NCBI GenBank assembly: GCA_016938695.1
Contig: JAFGUC010000043.1
Coordinates: forward strand, 119,213 to 183,212
Length of the DNA: 64,000 nt
DNA from: Candidatus Woesearchaeota archaeon
Lineage (GTDB): Archaea > Nanobdellota > Nanobdellia > Woesearchaeales > JAFGUC01
Direction of reading: 5' to 3'
A program made the translations under genes and the position numbers. The notes under the pieces were generated by a model. The model searched no databases. It saw only the letters and a program-made list of their open reading frames with translations, and was not told the DNA's origin. This document shows positions 3,294 to 61,507 of the stretch, piece after piece (positions within the stretch are counted from its first letter, which is position 1; each line of letters opens with the position of its first letter).

Positions 3294-3294
3294 T

Positions 3295-32446: not shown

Positions 32447-32652
32447 TCATTTAATGCAAGATTACAAAAATTGAGTACATCTATTTTGAAATCCAAATCA
32501 GAACCATTAAATCTAACAATAACAGATTCTAAATCCTCATCAACAGTAATAAAATCAAACTGAGCAGCAAGATTAATCAATTTTAAAGACGAATAATAAT
32601 ACTTAGAAAATCTAACTAATGCACCATCACCTTGAAAATTAACTAAAGACAT
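32425..32652 (-). CDS. Small protein (75 aa), possible second HxsD-like protein
   Basis: I trimmed the track ORF 32425..32766 to the ATG at 32652 to remove the overlap with the upstream gene. The sequence is MSLVNFQGDGALVRFSKYYY...DFKIDVLNFCNLALNECFIEKW. It shows weak resemblance to the HxsD motif region. Confidence 0.4.
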   Translation of the reverse strand: MSLVNFQGDGALVRFSKYYYSSLKLINLAAQFDFITVDEDLESVIVRFNGSDLDFKIDVLNFCNLALNECFIEKW

Positions 32653-32665
32653 CGTATTTAAGATT

Positions 32666-33085: not shown

Positions 33086-33138
33086 AACAGAAAAAATAAA
33101 ACAGCAATTTATATATTTTTCTTAAGAAAAAGAAAACT

Positions 33139-34670: not shown

Positions 34671-34724
34671 AGAATGATAAAAGAATAATTTATTTATAAA
34701 ACTTAGTTACTATTTATAAGGGAC

Positions 34725-44792: not shown

Positions 44793-45034
44793 TTAAAATT
44801 TATAATTCCATAATATAAAAATACAATCAAAGCGGCACAGACAAAAATCCAAATTAAGACAATCTTAACTTGAGAAGACTTAATAACCGGATAGTCCATT
44901 TCTAAAGCATCATCAATTATATCTTGAGGAAAACCTTTAGCTAACAATTTGTCACGAATATGAGAATTATTATTACCTCTCTTTTTCTCACGCTCCAACT
45001 GTTTAATAAATTTTTTCATATTCATTTCAAACAC
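44789..45034 (-). CDS. Tail-anchored mini-protein, 81 aa; last gene of the giant-ATPase operon
   Basis: The N-terminus is basic, followed by the short helical motif IRDKLLAKGFPQDIIDDALEM and the C-terminal TM helix IVLIWIFVCAALIVFLYYGII. Confidence 0.6.
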   Translation of the reverse strand: MFEMNMKKFIKQLEREKKRGNNNSHIRDKLLAKGFPQDIIDDALEMDYPVIKSSQVKIVLIWIFVCAALIVFLYYGIINFN

Positions 45035-45862
45035 CTATTTAACAACCCTTGAAACAACCATTTTAACCAAATCGGTTTGAACACCATACTTAGACAAGTA
45101 AGAAATTATGTACTCAGAATCAAAACCCAATTCATACATTCTTGAAACATAATTATGAAGAGATTGACCAATAAATAAAAAATTAGGATCTTCTAATCTA
45201 GCAATATCAACCAATTTTTTAGATAACTGTTCAATTTTTGAATTCAATGCTAAAAATCTTGAAAAAATATCTTTTTTTCTTTCAGAAAGTTCTTTCATTG
45301 TAACCATCAAACTACTTTGTGACTCCAACGTCGCAGCACCTTTACTAATAGTCATAAAACTATTATTCAAATAATCAATCTTATCTTTTATCTTGTCAAC
45401 AGAACCCAACAAATTAAAAAAATCATTCCACAATTTTGGAAAATCATTTTTCCTAAAAGTTTTGACTTGTAAAGTGATTTTCAAATATAATCCTTGAGCT
45501 TCATCTAACATTGATTTAGTATCGCCAAACATATCAAGAAATCGCATTTCTTTCATGAAATTTTGCAACACAGGCATCAATGATTGAGCTAAAGGTTCTC
45601 TATCATCCAAAGAATCATATAATCGTTCAATTCGAGAATGTAACCCATTAATACTTCCAAAAAAACCATGCTTATCAAAATTTATTTTGGAAATATTATC
45701 AAAAACCAAATCAGAATATTCTAATTTGCTATGACCTTCTTCATACATTCCACCTAGTTCACCTAAAGATTCTAATAAAGCCTCAGCTCGCTCATAGTCC
45801 GCTGCAATAATTTCATCAAATGAATTTATTCTAGCCTTAATAACCTCTAGTTTTGCATCCAT
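45035..45862 (-). CDS. Alpha-helical cytoplasmic protein, 275 aa
   Basis: The sequence is helix-rich, and the gene overlaps the upstream gene by 1 nt. The C-terminus ELGFDSEYIISYLSKYGVQTDLVKMVV resembles the motif found in the 81-aa protein and at the C-terminus of the giant. Confidence 0.7.
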   Translation of the reverse strand: MDAKLEVIKARINSFDEIIAADYERAEALLESLGELGGMYEEGHSKLEYSDLVFDNISKINFDKHGFFGSINGLHSRIERLYDSLDDREPLAQSLMPVLQNFMKEMRFLDMFGDTKSMLDEAQGLYLKITLQVKTFRKNDFPKLWNDFFNLLGSVDKIKDKIDYLNNSFMTISKGAATLESQSSLMVTMKELSERKKDIFSRFLALNSKIEQLSKKLVDIARLEDPNFLFIGQSLHNYVSRMYELGFDSEYIISYLSKYGVQTDLVKMVVSRVVK

Positions 45863-46800
45863 TAATAAGACCTCATGAATATTAAATCATCATCAACTGG
45901 TTTTTTACTAACTTCTTCCTTCTTAATTTCTGGTTTTTCAACCTTTTTTATTGTTGTATCGACTTCTTCAGTAACTGAAATATTTTTTATCGTATCTTTA
46001 ATAGAGATATCACTTGATAAAGAACTTTCTCGAATTCCAGATTGCTCTAAAACTAATTTAGATTTTTTATCAATCATCTCAGTAAATTTAGTCAATTCTT
46101 CCATACGCCGATTAAGTAATTCTCGTGGAACATAATTCTTCATCTGAAAACCAATCATCTGCTGTTGGGTCGACAATTTCTTAAGAGACGAATCAATCAT
46201 AGATAAACTATTAAAATACTTCAAAGATTGAGTATAATTCTTTTGCATCTCTGTAAAAAAACTTTGCGAACGTTCCAACTCTAAAGATAATTTTGATTCG
46301 ACCTGTAAAACATTTTTCAAAAGATTTTGAACATTTTTATTCAAATCTTGAAGATCATTTACTGAACCAAGACCTAATACTTTTTCGCGAACATCAGAAA
46401 TCTCAGATTTAACTGAATCAACTAAAGAAATAAAAGAATCTATCTTTGCTTCTACAGCATCAATGTGCATGCTTTCTTCTTCAAATTTTTTACTTAAGCC
46501 CATTGGATCAAGAATATTTACTAATTCTTCTGATTTTAATGCACGTGACTCCAATTTCTCAATATATTTTTCCTGTTGCATCAGTTTTCCACGAAGCTCA
46601 CCAATCAAAATATTCATCTTTGAGAACATTTGATTTACTTCATTTCGTTTTTGCTGTTGCGATTCAAACTTCTGTTGCAAGTCAGATATAGCATCAGAGA
46701 TACCTAATGCTTTTGCTTCAAGTTCGGCCCGTATTTGAGACGTCTGCGAAGAAGAATTCTCTTCTGTTGAATTATTATTTTCCTCATCCACCATTCTCAT
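45862..46800 (-). CDS. Coiled-coil protein, 312 aa, with acidic N-terminus and K/E-rich C-terminus
   Basis: Long heptad-like stretches are present (ELEAKALGISDAISDLQQKFESQQQKRNEVNQMF...). The start overlaps the 726-aa gene by 17 nt. Confidence 0.7.
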   Translation of the reverse strand: MRMVDEENNNSTEENSSSQTSQIRAELEAKALGISDAISDLQQKFESQQQKRNEVNQMFSKMNILIGELRGKLMQQEKYIEKLESRALKSEELVNILDPMGLSKKFEEESMHIDAVEAKIDSFISLVDSVKSEISDVREKVLGLGSVNDLQDLNKNVQNLLKNVLQVESKLSLELERSQSFFTEMQKNYTQSLKYFNSLSMIDSSLKKLSTQQQMIGFQMKNYVPRELLNRRMEELTKFTEMIDKKSKLVLEQSGIRESSLSSDISIKDTIKNISVTEEVDTTIKKVEKPEIKKEEVSKKPVDDDLIFMRSY

Positions 46801-48964
46801 GTACCTCTCTTGCCCGCTCTATATCATCACGTAATTCATCCATATCAATTTTTTCAATTGGAACTTTTGAACGTGACATTCCATTTGAAGATAAAACATC
46901 ATCAAGCCTTGTGTTTAATCCTTCAAAATACATATCAACCATTGTAAATGAACCTGAGCATAATTTTTCTTTTGCTAATTTTATTTCAAGATTAAAATCA
47001 AAAACATCCACTCCTTTTTCTTCTAATAGCTCAACATTGTAAATTATTTCTTCTAGTCTATCACTATAACCAATATATTTTTCCAAATCTGCTTCTTTTA
47101 ATCTTCTTGGACTATGAAGTAAAGGTCTAAAATTAACCATAAAAGGCTTACCTTTATTGTACGATGGATTGTTCATCATACCGTTTCCAGTTTCTGCCTT
47201 AACAACACTACGAAGTACTTCTTCACCATATTTTGTTCTAAGACGTTCTAAATCTCCTTCATCTTTAGTTCTCATCTGAACTTCTGTGTTGATGTTTGCC
47301 TTAATCTCTCCTACGAAATCTGACAAAACCTGCGAAATTAATACTAATCCAATTCCCCACTTCCTAAATTCCCTACATGCACGTTCAATTTGAACAAAAC
47401 CTGCACCACTTCCTCCAAACTTAGGAAGAAGCCTGTGAACCTCATCGTAAACCATCAAACTCTTTAAATGAGGATTTTCATCTAGTCCTTGACTGAAAAC
47501 TTGTTTAACCGTACTTGCTACAAAAATATCAATCTCACGAGGTTCTAATTTATGCAATGAAAATACAGTTATTTCTCCTGGATTCATGTGTTTTTTCAAA
47601 TCAATTTTTTGTAAAGCATCTTTAATAACAATAATAGTTCCAGGATAAGATTTTGCATCCTTCTTGTGTAAACCAAACTTAGGATAATAATTATACATTC
47701 CGTTATCATCATTCTTTCTAAAAAATCCAGTCCACTGAGCAGTTGGATCAAAAACAACAACACCTATTTTTTTATCTAATGCGTGTTCAACAACTCCTTG
47801 TGCAGCAACAGTTTTACCACCACCAGTACTTCCTGCAATAATTGTGTGAGTCATCAAATTATCAACATCAAAATAAATATTCTTATCAGTCTCACTAAGA
47901 AGACCTAAATGTACTCGTGAATCTTTTTTCTCTAAAGGTAAAGATTTCAAATATAATGGAAGATGATAACGTTTCTTTCTTTCCTTAGACCAACGATATA
48001 CAAAAATTCCTCCTGCAACTAATCCAAAAGATAACAAAATATAAACATAGTACCAAAGTTTCAATCCAAATAATCGTCTATTCAAAACAAAGATATTCAA
48101 TTTTAATGGAACAACTGAAAAAGTAGATATTGTAGAACCTTGATAAGGATATACTAATTCTCCTGATAAAATATATGTTCCCATATCAAAAGATTCTGGT
48201 ATTTCAAAAACAACAACATCAGAAAAAAATTCTTCAACATGTAAAGAATACTCTTGTGATAATAAATTTTCTCTTGTTTGAGTATCCAATAAAGATATAA
48301 TTAATCGCGAATCAACTGAAACAGGCAAGGGATTATTAACTTGCAATTGAATCTTTAAATCCTCAGTAATAGAACCTTCATTAATTGGATCTAAAATTAA
48401 CTCAATTTGATTAGCCCGACTATGTAACACATCAATTATAACAGGCATTTTATACTTTTTCTCTTGAAAGAAAAAATCAATAAAACCAATATATAAGTTA
48501 GGTATTACAGAATAGTTAGCTTTTATGCTTATTGGAAGGATAACTGTTTCTTGTGGCTTTATAGTGAACATTCCTATCTTTGTTTCTATATTGTTTAAAT
48601 CAAAAGAAATAAATTTTGAAACATTTTTAGATACATTAAAACTAACTTCAATTGATGTATCTAAGGTATTAGTTAACTGTAAATTTTCTGCAAAATATTC
48701 TCCTGGAAATATAACTTTCTTAATTTTACCTGGATAAAATTTAACATGACTATAAGTATCATTAATTTCATCTAAACTGTCTTCTAGAGGTTTTAATAAT
48801 TCACTAGTCTCTTTTCTTAAAATTTCTTGAGACTTAGAAAATTCTTCATCCAGTATCCTTCTAACTAAAGCTTCATTTGCTAAAACAGCTGAAGCTAAAC
48901 TAAGTATTAGTATCAAGAATAATACTAAATTCACCTCTTTTTTATAACAATTTAAAGATTTCAT
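46784..48964 (-). CDS. Bitopic membrane protein, 726 aa: ectodomain of about 290 aa (two Ig/CARDB-like modules), TM helix, cytoplasmic HerA/FtsK-like (DUF87) P-loop ATPase
   Basis: The signal/anchor is LVLFLILILSLASAVLA and the TM helix is LWYYVYILLSFGLVAGGIFVY. Walker A is IIAGSTGGGKTV, followed by VVVFDPTAQW, Walker B (LMVYDEVHRLLP) and FRKWGIGLVLISQVLSDF...NTEVQMRT, matching the HerA/DUF87 pattern. Confidence 0.85.
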   Translation of the reverse strand: MKSLNCYKKEVNLVLFLILILSLASAVLANEALVRRILDEEFSKSQEILRKETSELLKPLEDSLDEINDTYSHVKFYPGKIKKVIFPGEYFAENLQLTNTLDTSIEVSFNVSKNVSKFISFDLNNIETKIGMFTIKPQETVILPISIKANYSVIPNLYIGFIDFFFQEKKYKMPVIIDVLHSRANQIELILDPINEGSITEDLKIQLQVNNPLPVSVDSRLIISLLDTQTRENLLSQEYSLHVEEFFSDVVVFEIPESFDMGTYILSGELVYPYQGSTISTFSVVPLKLNIFVLNRRLFGLKLWYYVYILLSFGLVAGGIFVYRWSKERKKRYHLPLYLKSLPLEKKDSRVHLGLLSETDKNIYFDVDNLMTHTIIAGSTGGGKTVAAQGVVEHALDKKIGVVVFDPTAQWTGFFRKNDDNGMYNYYPKFGLHKKDAKSYPGTIIVIKDALQKIDLKKHMNPGEITVFSLHKLEPREIDIFVASTVKQVFSQGLDENPHLKSLMVYDEVHRLLPKFGGSGAGFVQIERACREFRKWGIGLVLISQVLSDFVGEIKANINTEVQMRTKDEGDLERLRTKYGEEVLRSVVKAETGNGMMNNPSYNKGKPFMVNFRPLLHSPRRLKEADLEKYIGYSDRLEEIIYNVELLEEKGVDVFDFNLEIKLAKEKLCSGSFTMVDMYFEGLNTRLDDVLSSNGMSRSKVPIEKIDMDELRDDIERAREVHENGG
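46810..47971 (-). repeat. Copy A of a duplicated ATPase-domain coding segment of about 1.16 kb (partner at 49515..50683)
   Basis: Long runs are identical at the nucleotide level, e.g. ctatatcatcacgtaattcatccatatcaattttttcaattggaac in both copies. The encoded proteins differ at about 35 of about 370 aligned residues by hand count. Confidence 0.85.
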
Positions 48965-51900
48965 CTATTGAATCCTCAGGCCATTTCTGGCTTTTAAGCT
49001 TTTGTCGTATTTGAGATTCACTTATTCCTTTTTTAATATAACCTTTAACAGTATCACGCATATTTAAAATGTGTTCTGCTGCAATAATATCTGTTTCAAT
49101 ATTCTTTAATTTCTCTTGTGCGTTAGTATAATACCTATCTATATAATTTTTTTGCAAGGCATTAATATCAGAACTGATGTATTTCATATTCAATTCCAAC
49201 ATTTTAGTATTTACACCCGAACGTTTTAGATTATCTACTCGTGATTGAAAATTAGAGTATTGAGTATTAACATCATCCTCTTTAGTTTTTGAAGGAGTTT
49301 CTTTAATTACAGGAATATCAATACTTGATTTTCTAGAGCTAGACTTTGGTTTAGAAACTTCAATATCTGAAAATTCAGAAATCTTAGATAAATTCACAGA
49401 AGACGTTTCCTTAGTACCCTCCAATTTATCTAAAAATTTATTATAGTAATTAGAGCTTCCAGAAGATTCTACCTTCTCAACTTTCTTAACGCCAATAGAA
49501 CCGCCGTGTGCTTTTCTCGCTCGCTCTATATCATCACGTAATTCATCCATATCAATTTTTTCAATTGGAACTTTTTCTCTAGTCAATCCATGTGCTTGAA
49601 GTGATTCATCTAAACGAGATGTCAATCCTTCTAAATACATATCAACCATTGTAAATGAACCTGAAGCTAATTTCTCTTTTGCTAATTTTATTTCAAGATT
49701 AAAATCAAAAACATCAACCTCGTGTTTTTCTAGCAAACCAACATTGTGAATTATTTCTTCTAACTTATTACTATAACCAATATATTTTTCTAAATCTGCT
49801 TCTTTTAATCTTCTTGGACTATGAAGTAAAGGTCTAAAATTAACCATAAATGGTTTACCTTTGTTATATGCTGGATTGTTCATCATACCGTTTCCAGTTT
49901 CTGCCTTAACAACACTACGTAAAACATCTTCACCATACTTCGTTTTCAAACGCTGTAAGTCAGCTTCATCCTTAGTTCTCATTTGAACTTCGGTGTTAAT
50001 GTTTGCCTTAATTTCCCCAACGAAATCTGACAAAACCTGTGAAATTAATACTAATCCAATTCCCCACTTCCTAAATTCCCTACATGCACGTTCAATCTGA
50101 ACAAAACCTGCACCACTTCCACCAAACTTAGGAAGAAGCCTATGAACCTCATCATAAACCATCAGATTCTTTAAATGAGAATCCTCATCCAAACCCTGAC
50201 TGAAAACTTGTTTAACAGTACTTGCTACAAAAATATCAATTTCCCGAGGTTCTAATTTATGCAACGAAAATACAGTTATTTCGCCAGGATTCATGTGTTT
50301 TTTTAAATCAATTTTTTGCAAAGCATCTTCAATAACAACAATAGTTCCAGGATACGACCGAGCATCTTTTCTCCGTAGACCAAATTTAGAATAATAATTA
50401 AACATTCCATTATCATCATTCTTTCTAAAAAATCCAGTCCACTGTGCAGTTGGATCAAAAACAACAACACCAATATTTTTATCTAATGCGTGTTCTACAA
50501 CTCCTTGTGCCGCAACAGTTTTACCACCACCAGTACTTCCTGCAATAATTGTGTGAGTCATTAAATTATCAACATCAAAGAAAACTTCTTTTTCATACTC
50601 ACTAAGTTTTCCTAATGGAACTCTACTTTCTGTTTTAACCAAAGGAAGTTCTTTAAAAAACACAGGTAAATGATATCTTCGAGATTTCTCAACAACAACT
50701 TGTTGAACTTTTACTCCACCTAAAACAACAGTAATCAACAAAATAAATGATAAAATCACCCAAATTGGAACACCATAAATTTCTCTATATAGCAAAGGAT
50801 TTACAATTTCAAATCTATTAACACGTGAAAATTCTTTCACAAATCCATTTAATGCATAAGAAATTTTAGTCTTGACATAATATTCTCCTTCTGAAAGATT
50901 TTGGGGAATTGACAACAAAGAAACATTATTATAATAAGTATTCAAATCAATTAAATTTGAGATCTCATATAATAAATTATTATTCATATCATATACTTCA
51001 AAACCTAAACTAACATTCTTCATCTCATCAGACGGATTATAAAGTTCAATATCTAGACCTAAATTCTTTCCAAGAACAACATAATCTCCAAGAAGTTTAA
51101 CAAACATTTGCAACTGCAAAGAATCTTGTTCAATTACTCTTAGACTAACAGGTAATCGTATTGCATCTGAACCAACAACAATCTCAAAATTACCATTATA
51201 TACGCCCGTTGGATAATCTTTTGGAATATGTAATTTCAATAATAACTGAGATTCTCTCATTGCTTTCAATGTAAACTCAGAAGTATTTATTGTAAAAAAA
51301 TCACTTAAACTATCACTATAACCTAATTTTACTTGTAAATCAACTCCTTGAGAATTTTTCAAAAATAAGGGAATAGAAAGATTCTCACCTTGATATAACA
51401 TCCTAGTAATATCTTCAAAATTTAATCCATATTTTTTATTAAATTCTTCAAATGTCGATAAACTATCCAAATAAGGATCAATTATAGAATGAGTCTCATT
51501 TAAAATTTCCTGCCGACTCTCATTTAATTTTTCTTCTAAAACTTTCTTAAGTACTGACGGATTAATTTGACCACTACTTGTTTGAGTATTCATAGAAATA
51601 AAATTATTTTGATCTATTGGTGGAACATCATGAACTAAAGCAATTGCACTCTGACTAGTAAAATTAAATGGAGAATAAAAATAAGTATTTCCATCAATAT
51701 TGACATATGATCGTTGATCAATTTTTGTCCAAGTTCCCAAACAAGATTCATTATTAAAATCCCACAAATTACATTGATATAAAAACATTTTATTTATATC
51801 ATCAACTACAACATCAGAATAATCAATATAGATTCCTGCTAATGAATTAAAAGGAGAATCAAACCCATAAACTTTGTAAACTTTCCTATCATCAATAGTA

Positions 51901-54900
51901 TAACCATTTACGTCATCTTTCATATCAACATCAATAAAATCAAATACATTACTAACATTATATAAATCAACATTTCTAAGCATCAAATAAATCTTCAAAT
52001 CAATACTTGAGTTTAACGTCAATGAATAATTTCTTCTATGAACTATTTCATCATAAGAACCAAAATCATCCATAGGTACTTCAAACAATGTTTCATCAAC
52101 ATGATAAGGATTTGATAAAATCATATTTCCTTTATATCCATGACCAACTCTATCATTTACCTTACCAAAAATTCTTGTTTTATTATAGACTCCAAACCAC
52201 CAATTATATGTACCCATATGTCTAATATCAGAACCATTTAATACAGACTCATTTGTCGAATAATTATCATATGCAATAAATTTAACACGGTAGTCACCAC
52301 TCACCATATTAAATAACTGAACGGAATAAGTATCATCACCCTGATATGTCAAATTATATCTTTCAGTTACATTAGCACCGGACGCATTTAAATGTGTCAA
52401 ATTAATATATGTTTCATTTACTTGAACGTTATCAAATATTTTAACCCGTAAATTCATATTCTCTCCTGGCTCAATAAAATCAGCATATGGATCTTCAAAC
52501 CAAGGAGGAATTACATCTACATAAATTAAAGAATTATTTTCAAAAGCAAACGCTTCAACATTATTATAAATTGCAGTAAATTTCAAATAATTACTTATTG
52601 GGTTATGCTCTATTTCTGGTGCGGCAAATTGGAAATACCAAATTTCATCAGATGCATTATATGAACTTAAAATAATTTCAGAAGGTTCACCTGAAACATT
52701 TAATACAAAATAAACATTATCACTCAAAGGAAGTCCGTTATAATAAACTCTAGCTTTTGCATTCAAGAGATCTCCCGCATATAAATCTCTATAAGGAGAG
52801 ATTTCAGTTGGATAATCCAAAAATACTCCAAACGGTACAACTTCTAAATCGACAGAAATATTCAATTGATTAGGAGTTATTGTATCGGATACTGCATCAA
52901 AAACAATATATCCTGTAAAATTACCCACTGTTTCATTAGTTGCATAATAAACAGGAATTCTAGTTTCTGACGATTTTAATGCTATTGCAGAAGTATTTTG
53001 GAAAAACAAAAAGTCACTAGTATTAATCGTTGAATTAGTGTTTGGCAAATTTAATATAGTAAAAGGAATGTTTCCGGTTGATTGTGTTTGATAGTTGTAA
53101 ACCGGAATATAACCTAAAAATGCCGTTTGGTTATATGCTATCTTCCTACTTATATGTTCTTCAGTAACAATTCCACCATCAACAATAGACCATTTTGATG
53201 CTCCAACAACAACAGTGATTGGAATTTCAATTGAACAAGCAGAAGAATATCTACAATAGTTTGAATTATTTGAAACATTAACTAACAAAGTAAATTCATA
53301 ATCCCAACTAGTTGCAGGATAATGATAATTTAAAAATTCATATGTGTAATTTGATGAAGGAATATTCATTGTTAAATTAACAATCATATCAGATAATTTT
53401 CCTAAATGAGACAAATTACCAAATGCAGTAATATTAAACCAATCTAAACTCATCAAAGTTGGCGGTGATGTTTGAGGAATAATTGTTAAAGTTATATTTT
53501 CTAAAGGTGTTGTACCAAATGCTTCAATCGTAAAATTTGATATAACCTCATCATGACCTGGAGTTATCAAAGCGTTAATCTCATCAGTATCCGAATGAAC
53601 AACGGTATTATTCAATACATCAATTAAAAATTCTTGTGAAACAACAACATATTCATTACTTGGATTCATCCATCTAAAATAAATTTTTATAGTGTTGTTG
53701 CCAATTGTTGCATTAGGATAAATTTTATAGTTTGATAATCCAAAACAATTACCAGATGCCAAAATATCTCCACAAGAAATACTATAATTTGTATAAGTAA
53801 TGTTAAAAGTTTCAAAATCTGCAGGAACAGTTGTAGATATTGCATTCAAAAATTCTGCCTTACTATTTGTTACATTTATTTGAACTCCTTTCGGTATTGA
53901 AAAAATAAAACTAGTGTTGAACATTGGCGTTAAACCAATATTTGTTGCATTGAATGCAATTGGGAATTCATAGCGATTAGAACGTGTTAAATTATTCAAA
54001 GTCATATTTTGAAATGGATCTATTGTCAAATTTACATATGTAGAATTCAAGATATTAACTATTCCCACTAATTGATGTCCAGTATTTCCAGAACTATCAT
54101 TCGAATAAACATACACATCAAAGACTCCACCAAAAGATGGAACAAATAGTGCAGAAAAATCATAAGTCGTTGCATTGACTGTAACCCTAGTTACTAAAGT
54201 CACATTCTGATCATGATAAGAATTATTAAACCTAAACCAAACTTGTGAAACATTAGATAAATCAGATACTCTTGCATCTAAATCAAACGTAAAATAATTC
54301 ACATATCCTTGAAGCGGCGTAACATTTGCTGAAATAATTACTGGAGGATCTATATCTGTTACATTTGCCACTTTTAATACTGAAGCCAAAGATGGAGTAT
54401 ATGGCTTTGATGTTGAAATTTCACAAAATAAACTTCTAAGACCAGGTACTGATGGTGTCCAAATAAACCGTGCAACTCCAGAACCATTTGTAAGAGATGA
54501 ACCAACAACTGCTGCTTCTTCTTTCAAAGTCACAAGATAATTAGAAATCACTTGATTAGTATCAGAAGTATTCACACCACATAATATTTCAACAGGATAA
54601 CCTAATCCAAAATTATTCGTTGCAGGTCCCACAAAATAAACCTTTGAATAAGTCCAAATTGAATAGTTAATTGTATCATTATAACTTACATAATTTGGAC
54701 CTGAAACTTGTAAAGTCAAATTATGATCACCTAGTGGTTCAGCAGATGAATCAAAATAAAAATTATTTCCTACATTCAACAAAACATAATCATCATACCA
54801 AGTAAACGTAGAACCAATAACAGGACCACAACTATCAACAGCAGTCGCATTCATTAAAATATTTCCAGTACGATAATTAATTGAATCATCCAAAGGACTC

Positions 54901-57900
54901 AAAAAAGTTATAGTAATATTGCTATCCTTTACAGTTATATTCTGCGTTACATTATAATATGATGAATTCCAATAAGGACTACTACCAGTAATAAAAGTTT
55001 TTAATTCTAATTCACCTAAATTAAAAGAACAATTTCCACGAACATCATTAGATATCAAACAATCGCCTGTTGCATTAGTTATATTCCAACCTAAATATTT
55101 ATCATCTAAATAAAAAGTACAATTATAACCTGCAAAATCTAAACTATTATTTTTCCAATCAATTAAATTTGCAACAATTGGTGAAATTTCATTTCGTAAA
55201 ATATAAGAGGTATTAGCTTCTAATTTTACCAAACCCATCAAATCAATTGTTCTATTTTCTGAAAGAACACCTACCTTACCAAATGCTTCAGCATATACTG
55301 ACCAATTATAAGTTCCTGGCACAAGAACCAAACTTGGTTGATATAAACAACTATATGTTCCATTAGAGTGATTAATTTCTGTCAAACATGAGCCTGCTGG
55401 AATATTCCAAGTTATATCAGCATTTAGTATTGGATTTAAGCCATCAAAAACATCAGCAGTTAAATTAATAACAGTCGGATAATAATATGAATCATTATAT
55501 GTTGAAACCATAGTATTATTTTCAGGACTAGTTAAATTGACGTCCATAGGATCAAGCATATCAACATAAACAATAACACTAGAGTTCTGTTCTGATAAAA
55601 CATTTGATCTATTGTAAAATAAACCTGAATTAAAATTCAAACCACAAGTTAAATTATAATTCGCATCTGCAGAAATATTTCCAGAAGTATTCCAATTATA
55701 ATACGCTACGCCATTTTGTGAGACATTAGTAAACATATGTATTCCATCTACATAGAAATTAACATTATATCCTGTTAAATTATAACCTAATTCAGAAATT
55801 GAAACATTTGCATCAGTAACATTACATCGTAAAGTAACAATATCTCCTTCCATATAAGTTCCTAATGCAGGAATATCTGTCGCACCAAATATTTTTCCCC
55901 AACCCCATACTGAAACTGAAACATTATCAACAATTGATGTAATAGAAGGAACAGTTACATTTGCATAAATCATTGATGGTCCTAGCAAAATACTATCATT
56001 TATATTCCAAAAATAAGAATCTTGATTTGACAATGAAACAATAGAATGATTCATCATATCAGAAGAACTATAATAATACCAATCTACATCAAATACAACT
56101 ATATCGTTAAAACAACTATCTTGAACACTAACATTTAACCAAACATCGTCTGTCCTATATTTTCTAACATTTTGCAATGGCGAAACAATATTAAGATTAA
56201 ATGAACTATCTTCTAAAGTAATGTTACCAGTATCATTATTTTTTAAAACATAAAAATCGGAATCTGCCCAAGCCAAAAAAACAGTTACATTATAATCACC
56301 TGATGGAAGTTCTGAATAACAACTAGTATCAGTCATCCAAGTATAATTACAATATCCTGTTGAATTCATACCAGTTGTACCATTATATATTCCATCAATA
56401 TACCAATCACAACCAAAACTAGATAAAATCGGTTGTGAAGAATAATCTAGTAATCTTGCAAAAAGATCAGCATTTGCACTTCGTGCAAAAACTAAATCTT
56501 TAGATACAAAATCTAAACTACCGAATGCTTTAATATTCAATGTATGATTTTCTGACCAAGATGAATTTAATTTGAATTCTTTTACTGCTTTTGCAGACCA
56601 ATTATAAACTCCAGGAACTAAATCATCTTTAGGATCATATAAACAATAGTAAGTTCCATTTCCTACTTCAACAACACCAGTTATACAATCGTCATCACTA
56701 TCACCAAATACATCAAAATAAATTGTTGCATTAGTAATATTACTTCCATCTGAATCTGTAACATGAACTGATAAATTTGCAAATTCAGGATATCCTGAAA
56801 CATTAACTCTACCAACAGATGTTCCATTAGGTAAAAGACTTTCAATAAAAAGTTGTTCAAATAAATCAACACGAACTTCGTGTGTTATTGACGAAATTCC
56901 ACCAAAAACAGTATTAAATTTTAAAGGTTCAGTAGTAGTATTACAAGTGATATTAATTAGTTGATCTGCAGTTATTGATGATATATCCCAAATAATATGC
57001 GCAATACCTGATGCATTAGTATTAGAAGAACCAATCAAATCCGTATCATTATAAAAATAAACAGTTTTATTATATATTGGTGATTGTGCTGAAATTTTTG
57101 GAAGATCATAATCAGTAACATTACAATATAAATCTGCAGAAAGACCATATACTGAACCACTATCTTCTGGATCCATTTCTGAAATATTAACAATACTATG
57201 AATTAAAAAAGTTCCATTAATTTGAGCACGTTCAATATTTCCCCCACCATTATCAATTTCTGCCCACCAACTATAATTACCAGGAATTGAAGTATCTGCA
57301 GGATTATATGTACAATTATAAATTCCACCCGTATAATTTATTACTGGAGTACACTGACCTAAATCTGTTTGAATCAATAAATTCTGCCCTTCAACATCTC
57401 CAGAATCCATCGTTAAATGAACTGAAAATGTAATTTGATTTGGAAGTAAAGATGCTGTTCTATAAACAATAGTATTGTTTGGGGGATAATCATACGTAAA
57501 ATTAATACTATCATGAACAATATAATCTGCAGACGTATAATGATAAGAATTATACCAAGTTCTATTAATCCAAAATGAAAGATAATCATCATCCATAAAC
57601 ATTGGAGTTGCCGGAGGAATAGTAAATCCTCCTATAAAATCATTACAATTAGGAGTATCATTTACAATAACGTCTCTCCAATAAACTGTAAAATTTACAG
57701 AACCACCTAAATTAAAACCATAATCATCTATTACTTGTAAAAAAGTCCAATTTATTTCATTAGGATATTCTGAACTGATTTGTCGACCAACATCTCCACC
57801 AGAAACTGGACTTAGAGTCGGATTTGATGGTATTGTAAAAATTGTACCCCACACATTAACATTAAAAAGACTACTTTGATTTGCAAAATAAGAAGAATCT

Positions 57901-60900
57901 TGCAATGCAAAATACCAACTTGTCGGACCTGGAGTAAAACTAAATCCTGGATCAAAATCTAAAGATAAATAACCAGTCAAATTAGTTGCAGTTAAAGAAA
58001 AGGAACTTGCTCCAACATAAGGTCGTCCTAAAACACCTTCAGAAACATAACTAGATGTATCTAAATCAAAAATTCTAACACTCAATTTTGTTTTTGCTGT
58101 TCCAGATCTATTAACATTAGAATTATTTCCATAAAAATATTCAACACTTGCATAATGTTTTCTAACAATAAAATCATTATAATTTGAACTAATTATTCGT
58201 GGATGATATCCATCAGTATAATTAAAATAATACTCAACCATTCCTATCCAAGATGATTGAACAATTACATCAAATGAAGCATTAGCTCCCGCAGCAATTT
58301 GTTTCCAATCATATCTTGAAAAAGTTGAACTTCCAGGAGTACGTAAATATAAACTAACATTTATCAAATCACTCTCAGCGTCAGCAATTGTAACATTAAA
58401 AGTAATATTTTCTCCCCAAGGTGGATTATAATCCTCTAAATAAACATTTGTTAAATATGGAAAATAATTATTAAACCTATGAACATAATATTGTATACTT
58501 GATGCAGCTGCTAAAGAATTTAATCTAATTTTTACAAAATCAACAATAGTATTATCATCAGTATCTTCAAAACAAGTTCCAAATGTCCTACCATCATGAT
58601 TGAATACATCAAAATCAGGAGAAGGAGAATTACAACTTTCACGATCAATTATCAAAGGAGTAATATCATAAAGTGTCAAACCAGATTTATAATACAAAGT
58701 ATCATTATTAATATTTCCAAGATTAGTTAAATTAAATTCTAAAATAGTATTTGTTAATGCAGATGAAACATTGCTTGTCAAAGTGTAAGTAATATTTGTT
58801 TCAGATGCACTTGAACTACTGCTAGTAGTATAATAAGATTGATAACAACTCTTATAATCACTAGTCCAATAATATGCATTTGGAGGAGTTGTTCCATTTC
58901 CAAGTACAACATAGGGATTTGTTGTAATATCACACATATTCAAAGTATCAGTATAATTTGAATAAAATCTTCCATTAAAAAAACAACTTGACGCCGTCCA
59001 ATCCATAGCCAAATAATTGAATAAAAGATTATCATAAATTTGATCATTATAAAATATCCGTGCATGTTCATAAGGGTAACTCACATTTGCAGTTATATTA
59101 TCAAAACTATAAAACGAACTTTCAATTGCATAATCTAAAACTCCAGTTAAATTATAAACATAGTCTACTGAAAACCCAACAGATATCTGACCATAATTAC
59201 TTGCAGTAACACGAATAGGCACAGAACATAAATTTGAACAAGTTGACAAATATTCAGATAAATTACCTGAAAAGAAAAAACTTTCATTACTGGAAAAAAT
59301 ACCTGGATTTTCAAAAATTAAATCTGCACCAACATAAACACTAACATCTTGAGGATAATTATTTCCATTTTGAATATACCATGCTTTTGCATCGTCTGCA
59401 ACAATTAGTTCATTTCCAGATTGACTATTTACATCATAACTAAGCATATCCATTACTGCTCCAGCACCAGTGTCATAATCCCAAAGTATACCTAGACCAG
59501 TAGAATATATAACAAAATGACCTGCTAAACCACCACCTCCAGAAAAACCAGCAACTAATTCATTTCCTGCAGATGTAGACATAACATCTGAAATTAAAAG
59601 TTTTGATGCACGACTAGTTATATCGTAACTTACAGAATTTAACTTAATAAGATTATTACTCATTATTGAAATTGAAGAACCATTAACAACAGCAATTTCA
59701 TTTAAACTTGAACCGCCATTTAATTCTCCAACTGCTACAGAGTAAGGATTAGTTACAGGCACAGAACGCAAAAACCCAGCTTGATAATCATAGACTCTAG
59801 TAACATCATCACCAGTACTGACAACAATAATTTCATCATTTGCACTAGCATCAACATTTCCACAAGCAACATCTTTAATACCATTTGCAAAACCTAATGC
59901 AGAATTTAATAATGTTCCATCATCATCATAAATAAACAAAGAATTGTCAGTTACAACAGCCAATTCATTCAAAGCATCACCATCTGTTTGCATTAATTCA
60001 ACATCTATAATATCATTCATGGAAGGAGTATCATTCCATTCCGCATAAATTCCCGCATTTGTTGCACGCACAACATAAATAGAATTTTGTGATGTGTAAA
60101 CTACTTCATCTAAAGGAAAACTGGTATTAAATTCTCCAACCAAAACATTTGAAAAAATATCTGCTGATTCAATAGTGTGATTAATATACCACTCAGATGT
60201 TGAATCATTATAACCATAAATTTCTAAAACTCCATCTAAACCAGTAACAATGCTTGTTTGATTCGTGACATTTCCTGCAGAAATACTATAGATATTAGTA
60301 TTCTCTCCTTGTATTGATGTTGAAACAGTACCAGCAATATTAAATCCAGCAACAACACTATCAGATTCTTCAGGCATGTAAAAATTTACAGTTTGATCAA
60401 GTGTACCAGAAACTACAAAGATTTTCTGTGTTTCTGAATCTGTAAAATGATCCTGAATAAATGGAACAGTAAGATTATACAAATTTAATAGATCGCCATC
60501 TTGATTTGCCTCTGCTGCAGCATTGCTTGCAATGACGTAATCAGTACCGTATTGAATTCTTATATGATGCTTTCCGCTTGTTAATTCTTTAACAACCAAA
60601 AAAGTTGTTACATCACAATCCCAAGACGAAATAACATAATTTGAATTTACAAGATTCAATAAATCACTTCTCTCTTCAAGACCACAATACAAAGCATCAA
60701 CACGCAAATCCAAATCAAAAACAGTATCTATCCCTGAAAAAGTAAGATTGTCAATTCCAAGAGTATCAAATGCAATAATCCAATTATGACCTTTAACTGG
60801 ATATGACTGAGTATTATGTAAATAAATAGACGAACCATTAAAATCAACGTCAGAAGTGTAGAAACTAGTCTGCAAACTAGTTAAAAGCAGCAAGATAATT

Positions 60901-60929
60901 CCTGCAACAAGTCCCACCTCTTTTTTCAT
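48942..60929 (-). CDS. Giant fusion protein, 3995 aa: signal/anchor, FG-GAP/VCBS-like repeats, ectodomain of about 3300 aa with Ig-like modules, single TM helix, HerA/FtsK-like (DUF87) ATPase, tail of about 190 aa
   Basis: The frame is 11,988 nt and uninterrupted, with an ATG preceded by an AAGGTGAG RBS. The N-terminus is MKKEVGLVAGIILLLLTSLQTSF. Repeats of the type NE[IL].VV...G are present. The TM helix is IWVILSFILLITVVLGGV (about 50712-50775). After it come SRRYHLP...IIAGSTGGGKTVAAQGVVEHALDKNIGVVVFDPTAQW...MVYDEVHRLLP...GIGLVLISQ. The C-terminus ends KKGISESQIRQKLKSQKWPEDSIDEIFKLL. Confidence 0.9.
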   Translation of the reverse strand: MKKEVGLVAGIILLLLTSLQTSFYTSDVDFNGSSIYLHNTQSYPVKGHNWIIAFDTLGIDNLTFSGIDTVFDLDLRVDALYCGLEERSDLLNLVNSNYVISSWDCDVTTFLVVKELTSGKHHIRIQYGTDYVIASNAAAEANQDGDLLNLYNLTVPFIQDHFTDSETQKIFVVSGTLDQTVNFYMPEESDSVVAGFNIAGTVSTSIQGENTNIYSISAGNVTNQTSIVTGLDGVLEIYGYNDSTSEWYINHTIESADIFSNVLVGEFNTSFPLDEVVYTSQNSIYVVRATNAGIYAEWNDTPSMNDIIDVELMQTDGDALNELAVVTDNSLFIYDDDGTLLNSALGFANGIKDVACGNVDASANDEIIVVSTGDDVTRVYDYQAGFLRSVPVTNPYSVAVGELNGGSSLNEIAVVNGSSISIMSNNLIKLNSVSYDITSRASKLLISDVMSTSAGNELVAGFSGGGGLAGHFVIYSTGLGILWDYDTGAGAVMDMLSYDVNSQSGNELIVADDAKAWYIQNGNNYPQDVSVYVGADLIFENPGIFSSNESFFFSGNLSEYLSTCSNLCSVPIRVTASNYGQISVGFSVDYVYNLTGVLDYAIESSFYSFDNITANVSYPYEHARIFYNDQIYDNLLFNYLAMDWTASSCFFNGRFYSNYTDTLNMCDITTNPYVVLGNGTTPPNAYYWTSDYKSCYQSYYTTSSSSSASETNITYTLTSNVSSALTNTILEFNLTNLGNINNDTLYYKSGLTLYDITPLIIDRESCNSPSPDFDVFNHDGRTFGTCFEDTDDNTIVDFVKIRLNSLAAASSIQYYVHRFNNYFPYLTNVYLEDYNPPWGENITFNVTIADAESDLINVSLYLRTPGSSTFSRYDWKQIAAGANASFDVIVQSSWIGMVEYYFNYTDGYHPRIISSNYNDFIVRKHYASVEYFYGNNSNVNRSGTAKTKLSVRIFDLDTSSYVSEGVLGRPYVGASSFSLTATNLTGYLSLDFDPGFSFTPGPTSWYFALQDSSYFANQSSLFNVNVWGTIFTIPSNPTLSPVSGGDVGRQISSEYPNEINWTFLQVIDDYGFNLGGSVNFTVYWRDVIVNDTPNCNDFIGGFTIPPATPMFMDDDYLSFWINRTWYNSYHYTSADYIVHDSINFTYDYPPNNTIVYRTASLLPNQITFSVHLTMDSGDVEGQNLLIQTDLGQCTPVINYTGGIYNCTYNPADTSIPGNYSWWAEIDNGGGNIERAQINGTFLIHSIVNISEMDPEDSGSVYGLSADLYCNVTDYDLPKISAQSPIYNKTVYFYNDTDLIGSSNTNASGIAHIIWDISSITADQLINITCNTTTEPLKFNTVFGGISSITHEVRVDLFEQLFIESLLPNGTSVGRVNVSGYPEFANLSVHVTDSDGSNITNATIYFDVFGDSDDDCITGVVEVGNGTYYCLYDPKDDLVPGVYNWSAKAVKEFKLNSSWSENHTLNIKAFGSLDFVSKDLVFARSANADLFARLLDYSSQPILSSFGCDWYIDGIYNGTTGMNSTGYCNYTWMTDTSCYSELPSGDYNVTVFLAWADSDFYVLKNNDTGNITLEDSSFNLNIVSPLQNVRKYRTDDVWLNVSVQDSCFNDIVVFDVDWYYYSSSDMMNHSIVSLSNQDSYFWNINDSILLGPSMIYANVTVPSITSIVDNVSVSVWGWGKIFGATDIPALGTYMEGDIVTLRCNVTDANVSISELGYNLTGYNVNFYVDGIHMFTNVSQNGVAYYNWNTSGNISADANYNLTCGLNFNSGLFYNRSNVLSEQNSSVIVYVDMLDPMDVNLTSPENNTMVSTYNDSYYYPTVINLTADVFDGLNPILNADITWNIPAGSCLTEINHSNGTYSCLYQPSLVLVPGTYNWSVYAEAFGKVGVLSENRTIDLMGLVKLEANTSYILRNEISPIVANLIDWKNNSLDFAGYNCTFYLDDKYLGWNITNATGDCLISNDVRGNCSFNLGELELKTFITGSSPYWNSSYYNVTQNITVKDSNITITFLSPLDDSINYRTGNILMNATAVDSCGPVIGSTFTWYDDYVLLNVGNNFYFDSSAEPLGDHNLTLQVSGPNYVSYNDTINYSIWTYSKVYFVGPATNNFGLGYPVEILCGVNTSDTNQVISNYLVTLKEEAAVVGSSLTNGSGVARFIWTPSVPGLRSLFCEISTSKPYTPSLASVLKVANVTDIDPPVIISANVTPLQGYVNYFTFDLDARVSDLSNVSQVWFRFNNSYHDQNVTLVTRVTVNATTYDFSALFVPSFGGVFDVYVYSNDSSGNTGHQLVGIVNILNSTYVNLTIDPFQNMTLNNLTRSNRYEFPIAFNATNIGLTPMFNTSFIFSIPKGVQINVTNSKAEFLNAISTTVPADFETFNITYTNYSISCGDILASGNCFGLSNYKIYPNATIGNNTIKIYFRWMNPSNEYVVVSQEFLIDVLNNTVVHSDTDEINALITPGHDEVISNFTIEAFGTTPLENITLTIIPQTSPPTLMSLDWFNITAFGNLSHLGKLSDMIVNLTMNIPSSNYTYEFLNYHYPATSWDYEFTLLVNVSNNSNYCRYSSACSIEIPITVVVGASKWSIVDGGIVTEEHISRKIAYNQTAFLGYIPVYNYQTQSTGNIPFTILNLPNTNSTINTSDFLFFQNTSAIALKSSETRIPVYYATNETVGNFTGYIVFDAVSDTITPNQLNISVDLEVVPFGVFLDYPTEISPYRDLYAGDLLNAKARVYYNGLPLSDNVYFVLNVSGEPSEIILSSYNASDEIWYFQFAAPEIEHNPISNYLKFTAIYNNVEAFAFENNSLIYVDVIPPWFEDPYADFIEPGENMNLRVKIFDNVQVNETYINLTHLNASGANVTERYNLTYQGDDTYSVQLFNMVSGDYRVKFIAYDNYSTNESVLNGSDIRHMGTYNWWFGVYNKTRIFGKVNDRVGHGYKGNMILSNPYHVDETLFEVPMDDFGSYDEIVHRRNYSLTLNSSIDLKIYLMLRNVDLYNVSNVFDFIDVDMKDDVNGYTIDDRKVYKVYGFDSPFNSLAGIYIDYSDVVVDDINKMFLYQCNLWDFNNESCLGTWTKIDQRSYVNIDGNTYFYSPFNFTSQSAIALVHDVPPIDQNNFISMNTQTSSGQINPSVLKKVLEEKLNESRQEILNETHSIIDPYLDSLSTFEEFNKKYGLNFEDITRMLYQGENLSIPLFLKNSQGVDLQVKLGYSDSLSDFFTINTSEFTLKAMRESQLLLKLHIPKDYPTGVYNGNFEIVVGSDAIRLPVSLRVIEQDSLQLQMFVKLLGDYVVLGKNLGLDIELYNPSDEMKNVSLGFEVYDMNNNLLYEISNLIDLNTYYNNVSLLSIPQNLSEGEYYVKTKISYALNGFVKEFSRVNRFEIVNPLLYREIYGVPIWVILSFILLITVVLGGVKVQQVVVEKSRRYHLPVFFKELPLVKTESRVPLGKLSEYEKEVFFDVDNLMTHTIIAGSTGGGKTVAAQGVVEHALDKNIGVVVFDPTAQWTGFFRKNDDNGMFNYYSKFGLRRKDARSYPGTIVVIEDALQKIDLKKHMNPGEITVFSLHKLEPREIDIFVASTVKQVFSQGLDEDSHLKNLMVYDEVHRLLPKFGGSGAGFVQIERACREFRKWGIGLVLISQVLSDFVGEIKANINTEVQMRTKDEADLQRLKTKYGEDVLRSVVKAETGNGMMNNPAYNKGKPFMVNFRPLLHSPRRLKEADLEKYIGYSNKLEEIIHNVGLLEKHEVDVFDFNLEIKLAKEKLASGSFTMVDMYLEGLTSRLDESLQAHGLTREKVPIEKIDMDELRDDIERARKAHGGSIGVKKVEKVESSGSSNYYNKFLDKLEGTKETSSVNLSKISEFSDIEVSKPKSSSRKSSIDIPVIKETPSKTKEDDVNTQYSNFQSRVDNLKRSGVNTKMLELNMKYISSDINALQKNYIDRYYTNAQEKLKNIETDIIAAEHILNMRDTVKGYIKKGISESQIRQKLKSQKWPEDSIDEIFKLL
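49515..50683 (-). repeat. Copy B of the duplicated ATPase-domain coding segment (partner at 46810..47971)
   Basis: See copy A. Both copies are in frame and sit in the same position relative to the TM helix. Confidence 0.85.
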
Positions 60930-61507
60930 CTACTTCTCACCTTATTGTATGTCGTCCAAATAGTACTAAGACTTTTATCCAACAATACCGATACATCCTT
61001 TATTTTCATTCCTTGAGTATCGACCAAGAACATTACAACATTTTCCAAAACACTGTTTTTTAAAACATAACTAGAAAGGGGCATAACACAAGAAAAATCT
61101 AACTTTAAAGAAAGATTTCGTTTTTGAGAATTTCTATATGTAGTCCAAACACTACTTTCACTTTTTCCCAAATATTGAGAAATTTCCTTATGACGCAAAT
61201 TCAGATTTTCTTTTAAATATTTGACAATTGATTCATATGGACTAAATCCAGAAGCAAAAATAGAAATAGGAATTATTAATTCATTTTTTGAAACCAAAGA
61301 ATTGAACTGAGCGATTAAATCTTTGACATCACCACTCTTTTTTATACGCTCAACAAGAACCTCAAAAAGAAACTTGCCTTCTTCTTCAGAAAGCAAACTA
61401 CAAAACCTTTCAAATTCATGTAACAAGCGTTCATCATTAAACTTCTTAAAACTATCAAGAATTGAAACAGATTCTGTAAAATGACCTAACCCTTTCCCCA
61501 CTTCCAT
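60926..61507 (-). CDS. Double helix-turn-helix (sigma-70 region 4 / LuxR-like) putative transcription regulator, 193 aa
   Basis: Two similar segments are present: SPYESIVKYLKENLNLRHKEISQYLGKSESSVWTTYRNSQKR and VLENVVMFLVDTQGMKIKDVSVLLDKSLSTIWTTYNKVRSR. The stop overlaps the start of the giant gene by 4 nt. Confidence 0.6.
   Translation of the reverse strand: MEVGKGLGHFTESVSILDSFKKFNDERLLHEFERFCSLLSEEEGKFLFEVLVERIKKSGDVKDLIAQFNSLVSKNELIIPISIFASGFSPYESIVKYLKENLNLRHKEISQYLGKSESSVWTTYRNSQKRNLSLKLDFSCVMPLSSYVLKNSVLENVVMFLVDTQGMKIKDVSVLLDKSLSTIWTTYNKVRSR

Follow-up and report, generated by a model that had tools for sequence, protein, structure and literature searches.

A giant SPEARE-type surface protein of a Woesearchaeota archaeon with a HerA-clade ATPase behind its single transmembrane helix

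We analysed a stretch of 64,000 nucleotides (nt) of DNA from a Candidatus Woesearchaeota archaeon (assembly GCA_016938695.1, contig JAFGUC010000043.1, positions 119,213 to 183,212), hereafter the window, in which one gene on the minus strand (48942-60929) encodes a giant protein of 3,995 amino acids (aa). The giant consists of a signal peptide, an ectodomain of ~3,360 aa, one transmembrane (TM) helix and a cytoplasmic HerA-clade P-loop ATPase, and, as judged from sequence homology, it almost certainly belongs to the SPEARE family. Jointly with this identity, we favour a general mechanism in which the ectodomain would serve as an adhesin and the ATPase as a ring translocase, a combined reading that we hold with moderate confidence. 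SPEARE proteins were described by Hamm et al. (2019) from Nanohaloarchaeota, and possess a long extracytoplasmic part, a TM segment near the C-terminus and a conserved cytoplasmic P-loop region (PMC6642349). Their most conserved region is the intracellular part, relatives of which were noted in Altiarchaeales and in Woese-, Aenigm- and Micrarchaeota; one genome can hold versions from 655 to 8,553 aa long, and SPEARE is expressed in co-culture (PMC6642349). A 2023 paper described nanohaloarchaeal giants of 8,880 and 9,409 aa, comprised of a Sec signal, beta-propellers, tens of immunoglobulin (Ig)-like domains, a TM segment, a cytosolic 'VirB4/TraG-like' ATPase and a terminal coiled coil, and equated them with SPEARE (PMC10266531).

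As the SPEARE comparison sequence, we used the last 569 residues of NAR1_1133 from Ca. Nanohaloarchaeum antarcticus (Fig. S18 of the Hamm 2019 supplement). The window giant matches this C-terminus with 36% identity over 523 aa (BLASTP, E 1e-107), and the two sequences run colinear from the last ectodomain module across the TM helix and the whole ATPase to the C-terminal helices. Among the 81 related loci over which our neighbourhood and tblastn counts were taken, L076 derives from the metagenome-assembled genome (MAG) 'Euryarchaeota archaeon SM23-78' and encodes an ATPase 50% identical to that of the window; a protein of this same MAG is listed in Hamm Table S3 among the homologs of the SPEARE intracellular domain (PMC6642349). 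Additionally, the 717-aa Lake Tyrrell SPEARE, with its TM helix at 323-345 and its P-loop region at 374-616 (PMC6642349), shows a layout identical to that of a 726-aa paralog encoded beside the giant. The preliminary description of this DNA had considered the architecture unknown, whereas it was published as SPEARE in 2019 and re-read in 2023, and the window protein is a homolog. Since that description itself reserved novelty for an architecture not already characterised, the giant is not novel in kind. The literature on DPANN archaea with DUF87/HerA yielded no report besides the SPEARE papers, and a cryo-electron tomography paper on DPANN nanotubes names no ATPase and describes the tubes as being of host origin.

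The gene is a single open reading frame (ORF) of 3,995 codons that starts with ATG and has no internal stop, as stated in the preliminary description, and its length in local DNA of ~29% G+C excludes a chance origin of the frame. The only strongly hydrophobic 19-mer windows of the giant lie at aa 5-23 and aa 3383-3414, and the TM-helix sequence IWVILSFILLITVVLGGV begins at aa 3389. Ahead of this helix we counted 158 N-x-S/T sequons versus 58 +/- 6 in shuffled sequences, while past it there is 1 versus 3.4 expected. Because of this sequon split and the signal-like N-terminus, the giant is placed with its N-terminus outside and its C-terminus inside; hydrophobicity and sequon asymmetry thus agree with the earlier claim of one TM helix joining an ectodomain to a cytoplasmic ATPase. 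One could suspect that an assembly chimera or a missed frameshift fused an adhesin gene to a separate ATPase gene, since a second, near-duplicate copy of the ATPase sequence is found at a distance of 2.7 kb, and such copies can mislead assemblers. However, the longest exact run common to both ATPase copies is 59 nt, the junction of Ig modules, TM helix and ATPase is colinear with the 726-aa paralog and with the SPEARE protein, and many independent assemblies hold the same fusion. Given that the fusion recurs and that the ATPase is always C-terminal in it, such an artefact is extremely improbable. A tandem-repeat search found no recent DNA tandem repeats in the giant gene.

The ATPase core occupies aa 3436-3700 (49830-50624, minus strand), as supported by Pfam DUF87, a profile search of Protein Data Bank (PDB) sequences, and AlphaFold2 with Foldseek. 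Walker A corresponds to G3464-T3471 within the motif IIAGSTGGGKTV, which begins at aa 3461, and Walker B to D3593-E3594 within MVYDEVHRLLP, which begins at aa 3590; VVVFDPTAQW, GIGLVLISQ and NTEVQMRT start at aa 3488, 3623 and 3645, respectively. Every motif quoted in the preliminary description was therefore located, between aa 3389 and 3652, and its statement that the P-loop ATPase is complete holds. The catalytic residues, Walker A/B together with the RK.G and SQ motifs, are invariant in an alignment of 26 sequences. The Pfam DUF87/HerA central domain (PF01935) matches aa 3438-3535 of the giant with 31.8 bits against a gathering score of 23.2, and the 726-aa paralog with 35.9 bits against the same cut-off; weaker Pfam matches of the giant, at the level of the P-loop, are TrwB_AAD_bind, HerA_C, ResIII and FtsK_SpoIIIE. 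When PDB sequences were searched with a 26-member family profile, only HerA-type chains matched. The AlphaFold2 model of the TM helix and ATPase has a mean predicted local distance difference test (pLDDT) value of 87.5, and its top Foldseek matches are the HerA structures 8woc, 4d2i, 8xau and 9x1m, hexameric translocases and defence-type HerA included, followed by TcpA (rank 16) and FtsK. The motor of the giant is thus HerA-clade by sequence and fold, in line with the earlier HerA/DUF87 assignment, and the label 'VirB4/TraG-like' is too specific.

That label belongs to the T4SS-like 'straw' proposed in 2023, in which a VirB4/TraG-type ATPase would form part of a type IV secretion system (T4SS) that injects effectors into the host. 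Several matches lean this way: TrwB_AAD_bind matches weakly, with scores of 20.4 and 21.1 bits around its cut-off of 20.5, TraD and TraC are weakly matched among the NCBIfam models, and TcpA is found by Foldseek as mentioned above; moreover, the nanohaloarchaeal giants were reported with a second ATPase gene immediately downstream that carries a CagE/TrbE/VirB domain (PMC10266531). Yet all these family matches are confined to ~50 aa at the P-loop, the T4SS models AAA_10 (13.9 bits vs 27.5) and T4SS-DNA_transf (14.4 vs 20.1) both stay below threshold, and HerA is best by both sequence and fold. CagE_TrbE_VirB has no Pfam match in the giant or the paralog, and the next gene in the window is a SPEARE paralog rather than a VirB4 homolog. 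Furthermore, a polytopic protein of the VirB6 kind is neither conserved across the 81 loci nor present in the window operon, where Pfam likewise gives no VirB3/VirB8-like or pilin match. We therefore regard a T4SS role as unlikely.

The ResIII match touches the original reading of SPEARE, in which a serine protease and adhesion domains are combined with a type III restriction endonuclease in the cytoplasm, by which imported DNA would be degraded. The match is weak in the window protein (E 0.013) and stronger in homologs, and some family members do carry a subtilase domain, such as P0141. However, ResIII is a helicase/P-loop module without nuclease and overlaps the DUF87 match; by Pfam, there is neither a nuclease family in the protein or its operon nor a protease domain or other peptidase family in the giant. 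The 2023 re-analysis concluded likewise and argued that the serine protease domain is not a family feature (PMC10266531). A restriction function is accordingly very improbable here.

The nearest HerA relatives include those of anti-virus defence systems, and a membrane-anchored defence HerA would be consistent with the best PADLOC matches, namely mad8 (E 4e-17, over nearly the full profile length) and several HerA models, as well as with Sir2-HerA and DUF4297-HerA as PDB neighbours. On the other hand, neither NurA, Sir2, DUF4297, a nuclease, a methyltransferase nor another effector partner was detected in the operon by Pfam and PADLOC, HerA of the matched solved complexes is soluble, and the conserved neighbours of the family are surface and coiled-coil proteins. 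We know of no defence-type HerA with a giant glycosylated ectodomain, and give this explanation hardly any weight. The best NCBIfam match is CedD (NF053655, E 1e-10), with scores of 40.5 and 36.4 bits against a cut-off of 600.

The ATPase is joined closely to the membrane. The distance from the TM helix to Walker A is only 57 aa, and the giant has no HAS-barrel; in the AlphaFold2 model two short strands lie between these elements. Behind the ATPase follows a family-specific helical bundle (aa 3710-3810; 49500-49802, minus strand) of three to four long helices, at residues 331-430 of the model; family members and the SPEARE protein share it, with the conserved motif DVFD..LE.KLAK.KL..G.F..VD.Y. 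The protein ends with a variable lysine/glutamate/serine-rich tail (aa 3811-3995; 48945-49499, minus strand), lacking in the paralog, whose end forms a short motif resembling the RecX helix-turn-helix (HTH); the Pfam match of RecX_HTH1 at aa 3970-3990 is weak. The last 29 aa of the giant (48945-49031) are 38% identical to aa 18-46 (44897-44983) of an 81-aa tail-anchored protein encoded by the last gene of the operon, and weak RecX-HTH-like Pfam matches occur in both proteins. A C-terminal motif of the type KG[FY]s...I...L...GW....I is present in 4 of 63 long family members examined, the window giant counted.

The ectodomain was dissected along the same strand. After the signal-like hydrophobic N-terminus (aa 1-26, 60852-60929; Kyte-Doolittle peak at aa 5-23) comes a distal domain of ~110 aa (aa 30-140, 60510-60842), for which Pfam has no match and phmmer finds counterparts in four giant family members, P0167, P0200, P0203 and P0237 (E 7e-15 to 2e-10). 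Seven repeats of ~45 aa with the pattern h..G.h.....NEhhV (aa 208-536, 59322-60308) possibly form an FG-GAP-like beta-propeller; their match to the true FG-GAP blades of homolog P0181 is weak in hhalign (P 9e-4, probability 22%), Pfam has no match here, and the word-indexed protein database gave no homologs for aa 150-620. The following sequon-rich middle (aa 537-2399, 53733-59321) is variable: its first 1,500 residues have zero tblastn matches in the 81 related loci, the remainder has one weak match (L037, E 1.8e-4), and Filamin of Pfam stays below threshold (20 bits vs 26.9). For the distal ~2,400 residues as a whole, Pfam, phmmer against PDB sequences and the homolog search recognised nothing. 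Family conservation begins at aa ~2400 and extends to ~3385 (tblastn). It covers an outer stalk (aa 2400-3123, 51561-53732) with tblastn matches in 9 related loci, for example in L075 (26% over 461 aa, E 1e-22), blocks of which were seen again by eye in fetched giant homologs, and a membrane-proximal core (aa 3124-3376, 50802-51560) kept in 18 loci and in the 726-aa paralog. According to the AlphaFold2 model (40-sequence alignment; mean pLDDT 87.5, >90 in the sandwiches), this core consists of a 45-aa helix and two Ig-like beta-sandwiches; its Foldseek PDB matches include the tandem fibronectin type III domains of RbmA, WxLIP, invasin and the Ig domains of PECAM. The single TM helix (aa 3383-3414, 50688-50783) has a hydrophobicity of 2.5 and is one long helix in the model.

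The preliminary description had presented the ectodomain as FG-GAP-like blades, many Ig-like modules and dozens of sequons. The sequons are indeed there, 158 of them, and the Ig-like fold is recovered in a confident model for the two membrane-proximal modules only. In contrast, the blades and the further Ig modules found no such backing: Pfam over nine segments (E<=5) gave no significant FG-GAP, Ig or other adhesion family, the laminin-G of Hamm's SPEARE definition included, and the repeats resemble FG-GAP only weakly. Just before the membrane-proximal helix, a stretch of 6-10 glycines is found in many members (e.g. P0139, P0141, P0150, P0161 and P0181), and the window giant has a Ser/Gln-rich linker at aa ~3090-3125 where its relatives carry poly-Gly. 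Either a hinge or the cleavage site that yields the two SPEARE gel fragments of Hamm et al. may lie here.

The combination of such parts is widespread. A one-genome-per-species scan returned 80 loci, mostly in Woese-, Pace- and Nanoarchaeota-type MAGs, so that the DPANN setting proposed earlier agrees with the origin of the close homologs, all of them from MAGs of these types. ATPase-bearing ORFs of the related loci fall into classes of ~730-800 aa and, most commonly, ~1,200-1,400 aa; larger ones have 1,621, 2,332 and 2,688 aa, while others, cut off by the end of the fetched DNA, reach at least 2,309 and 3,979 aa. An exhaustive search of 1.84 billion representative proteins yielded 1,025 relatives, of which 360 representative clusters reach E<=1e-30. 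Of the best 150 clusters, 53 measure 2,000 aa or more and 33 measure 3,000 aa or more, the longest having 6,253 aa, and the ATPase is C-terminal in all 53 members of at least 2,000 aa. The word-indexed ATPase search returned nothing >754 aa and missed the window giant, which the exhaustive search did recover together with dozens of giants, so its length distribution misleads for this family. Across 165 family members, the TM helix stands constantly 50-65 aa ahead of Walker A, the sequon density is 3.15 per 100 aa outside versus 0.26 inside, and a signal-like N-terminus is present in 105, many of the others being truncated. The heads carried by the same stalk differ: FG-GAP, CARDB and NPCBM_assoc in some members, a subtilase with DUF835 (Peptidase_S8 in P0141, E 1e-31) or CarboxypepD_reg repeats in others. 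The family is thus built of a constant core, comprising stalk, TM helix, ATPase and helical bundle, and of exchangeable distal parts. In P0141, P0186, P0027 and P0100, DUF835 is added after the ATPase tail. Single MAGs, sometimes single contigs, hold two or more family loci of different sizes (L004/L024, L040/L047, L008/L055 and L021/L073), which recalls the four SPEARE genes of Ca. Nanopetramus SG9.

The giant gene lies in a compact operon of six same-strand genes that overlap or abut (44789-61507, minus strand), in the order HTH protein, giant, paralog, 312-aa, 275-aa and 81-aa protein. This arrangement had been noted from the ORFs before, together with the lack of nuclease, pilin and canonical secretion genes, and Pfam likewise finds no nuclease, pilin or secretion-channel family in the operon proteins. 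The first gene (60926-61507), whose stop overlaps the ATG of the giant by 4 nt, encodes a 193-aa putative regulator with two HTH motifs (Sigma70_r4_2 in two stretches, E 1.4e-7; HTH_23); homologs close to the ATPase gene occur in only 3 of the 81 loci, directly upstream in L041. The 726-aa paralog (46784-48964), whose gene overlaps the stop codon of the giant, contains a signal peptide, a helix, two Ig-like modules, a TM helix at aa 303-323 and the ATPase. It is 66% identical to the C-terminal part of the giant over 573 aa (BLASTP) and, with an ectodomain of ~270 aa, is the minimal family core, essentially the membrane-proximal part alone. The two ATPase regions are 86% identical in aa and 85% in nt, and 75% at third codon positions. 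ATPases of the same locus are 98.7%, 69% and 68% identical in the loci L020, L039 and L041, and 87% in the window (46823-50681), compared with ~50% between genomes, while the ectodomains of same-locus pairs differ. As far as sequence comparison goes, this likeness suggests either gene conversion or a recent duplication accompanied by head swapping.

Downstream, a 312-aa cytoplasmic helical (coiled-coil) protein (45862-46800), without TM helix or Pfam family, is a conserved neighbour of the ATPase gene, with a homolog downstream on the same strand in 49 of the 81 loci. The adjoining 275-aa helical protein (45035-45862) is probably its distant paralog: direct BLASTP similarity is weak (19% identity, E 0.002), and iterated profile searches with the two proteins converge on the same 49 proteins, a convergence that may reflect coiled-coil composition as much as homology. 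The last gene (44789-45034) encodes the 81-aa protein, anchored by a TM helix at aa ~50-81 according to hydrophobicity; it has no homolog in the 81 loci and is therefore placed outside the conserved system. In the related loci of the 1,300-aa class, the usual gene order is a ~90-aa ORF, a ~1,000-aa surface protein with C-terminal TM anchor, the ATPase fusion, a 150-270-aa protein, a 312-aa-like protein and, farther on, a surface protein of >1,500 aa. The neighbour clusters of the 81 loci contain no conserved polytopic membrane protein of the CedA/VirB6 type; these clusters were built by single linkage, with some families merged and antisense ORFs included, and were used qualitatively only.

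Based on these findings, a mechanism can be proposed by analogy with other FtsK-HerA enzymes. The ectodomain would bind the surface of the host cell, and the ATPase would form a ring against the inner membrane face, as its relatives do, with no HAS-barrel between. This ring would probably mix subunits of the giant and the 726-aa paralog, whose ATPases are so similar, as the closeness of same-locus ATPases in other loci also hints, and the conserved 312-aa coiled-coil protein is its likely cytoplasmic partner. Where the cells touch, ATP hydrolysis in the ring would then drive a polymer across the membrane or along it. We give a ring-translocase mechanism of this kind an even chance; the idea of coupling host contact to translocation has already been proposed in the SPEARE papers. 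As for the polymer, uptake of host nucleic acid, working like CedB/CedD, would be our first choice and protein export the second. Nucleic-acid uptake is favoured because the nearest solved relatives (HerA, FtsK and TcpA) are DNA translocases or coupling proteins, because CedB and CedD, the only characterised TM-anchored archaeal HerA-clade ATPases, import DNA, and because many DPANN archaea lack nucleotide synthesis. A nucleic-acid substrate is nevertheless a tentative suggestion, on the doubtful side.

Several points weigh against this combined reading. Six single TM helices are unlikely to make more than a poor conduit for DNA or protein alone, and no conserved polytopic partner accompanies them in the 81 loci. 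Two ATPase genes within 10 kb of each other occur in only 4 of the 81 loci and in the window, a rarity from which it follows that a mixed ring is not general. The CedD score, ~40 bits, is far below its cut-off. In the gels of Hamm et al., ectodomain peptides were found at >315 kDa, while TM and cytoplasmic peptides were found only at <315 kDa (PMC6642349); given these fractions, the mature protein may be cleaved, which would weaken direct mechanical coupling.

The ATPase may alternatively serve the adhesin itself, by assembling, inserting, extracting, tensioning or recycling the ectodomain or other surface proteins, or by relaying outside binding inward, in parallel to VirB4, which dislocates pilins. 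The covalent link, the strict 50-65 aa spacing between TM helix and Walker A across very different ectodomains, the large C-terminally TM-anchored surface proteins immediately upstream of the ATPase gene in many loci, and the missing channel partner are all consistent with such a service. Against it, the solved relatives act as DNA translocases or as coupling proteins of DNA transfer, short members with a ~300-aa ectodomain keep the same motor, and no HerA-clade enzyme is known to us to act on its own ectodomain; we thus consider it improbable, and prefer the adhesin linked to a ring translocase. A further-reaching version of this preferred reading, speculative and probably beyond what will hold, is that the family forms the core of a distinct envelope-spanning machine, in which a HerA-clade ring motor with its own stalk, exchangeable host-binding heads, and coiled-coil and C-terminally anchored surface proteins, but no T4SS or Ced parts, would draw host DNA or other polymers directly into the DPANN cell where the two partners touch.

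The rest of the window contains further surface-related genes. At 1846-6682 (minus strand) lie eight small-to-medium ORFs whose N-termini resemble class III (type IV pilin-like) signal peptides, e.g. MSKKAQSMSLNVVIVAALALIVLVVL and MKKGMVQSQAIMYVLGMIIVAAIL, and a Peptidase_A24 prepilin peptidase gene is located at 28950-30068 (plus strand). A pilus-like gene set is present in the window beside other giant surface proteins, although the operon itself lacks a pilin. The prepilin peptidase gene start is overlapped by a gene (27172-28953, plus strand) for a 593-aa protein that is predicted to have ~12 TM segments and is unmatched by Pfam. Four more large secreted proteins, of 1,185, 3,008, 1,079 and 1,473 aa, are encoded at 6693-27035 (minus strand); their sequons (15 vs 10 expected, 34 vs 29, 15 vs 11 and 5 vs 23, respectively) are not enriched, and the 3,008-aa protein contains CarboxypepD_reg and Big_13 domains. 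The 1,185-aa protein (6693-10250, minus strand) combines a signal peptide and a TM helix at aa ~840 with a K/E-rich cytoplasmic tail of ~330 aa, which is also how the ~1,000-aa surface proteins encoded directly ahead of the ATPase in many related loci are laid out; between its tail and the 312-aa protein there is a weak similarity (E 0.017). Beside the operon, at 39004-44792, are three GT1/GT4 glycosyltransferases, a Bac_transf sugar-phosphate transferase and a DUF5838 protein, and this glycosylation cluster is a plausible source of glycans for the 158-sequon ectodomain. Three radical SAM proteins, one with a SPASM domain, are encoded at 30057-35696. Scans of the window for tRNA and Rfam families gave no match.

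DPANN cells bind their hosts and take from them what they are unable to produce; SPEARE-type proteins rank among the leading candidates for this task. The giant form is not peculiar to Nanohaloarchaeota, but is common in DPANN archaea of freshwater, sediment and groundwater, with dozens of clusters of 2,000-6,250 aa. To the picture of SPEARE, the present analysis adds a HerA-like motor, the lack of a conserved T4SS or Ced partner, a constant stalk-TM-ATPase part, a conserved coiled-coil neighbour, and ATPase modules that are unusually similar within one genome. It offers a sharper and wider view of a known family rather than the discovery of a new one.

Compared with other FtsK-HerA motors, the window protein combines familiar and unusual elements. 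VirD4/TrwB/TcpA, FtsK/SpoIIIE and EccC/EssC of the type VII secretion system have an N-terminal TM segment followed by a ring ATPase with its pore towards the membrane, with at least two TM helices per subunit, short external loops and dedicated channel components; to our knowledge, none of them bears an adhesin-scale ectodomain, and TcpA and FtsK are structural neighbours of the window ATPase by Foldseek. CedB and CedD are TM-anchored HerA-clade ATPases of Sulfolobales required for DNA import, and resemble the window pair in being two paralogous enzymes, which in the Ced system act together at the membrane (PMC11868833). In contrast, Ced proteins lack an ectodomain, their N-terminal domain is cytoplasmic and VirB4-like, and the CedA/CedE channel and CedA1 pilins are without counterpart in the operon (Pfam) or the conserved neighbourhoods. 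HerA, as in HerA-NurA, Sir2-HerA, DUF4297-HerA and MADS mad8, is the closest ATPase by Pfam, PDB profile and fold, and shares Walker A/B plus the R-K-x-G and ..SQ motifs typical of DUF87, whereas the window ATPase is membrane-anchored, has neither HAS-barrel nor effector partner, and possesses its own C-terminal helical bundle. From the named SPEARE proteins (NAR1_1133, 5,998 aa; Nanopetramus SG9, 8,553, 4,057, 3,315 and 655 aa; SVXNc_0300, 9,409 aa), the giant differs in its host lineage, a low-G+C, non-halophilic DPANN archaeon outside Nanohaloarchaeota, in showing no detected protease, laminin-G or toxin-like domain, in a distal ectodomain almost without detectable similarity to other members, and in a neighbouring ATPase that is a SPEARE paralog instead of a CagE/VirB4-domain protein. 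With them it shares the order of its parts, from signal peptide through huge adhesin-like ectodomain, single TM helix and P-loop ATPase to the helical C-terminus, as well as long and short forms in one genome, an adjacent second ATPase gene and acidic, sequon-rich ectodomains.

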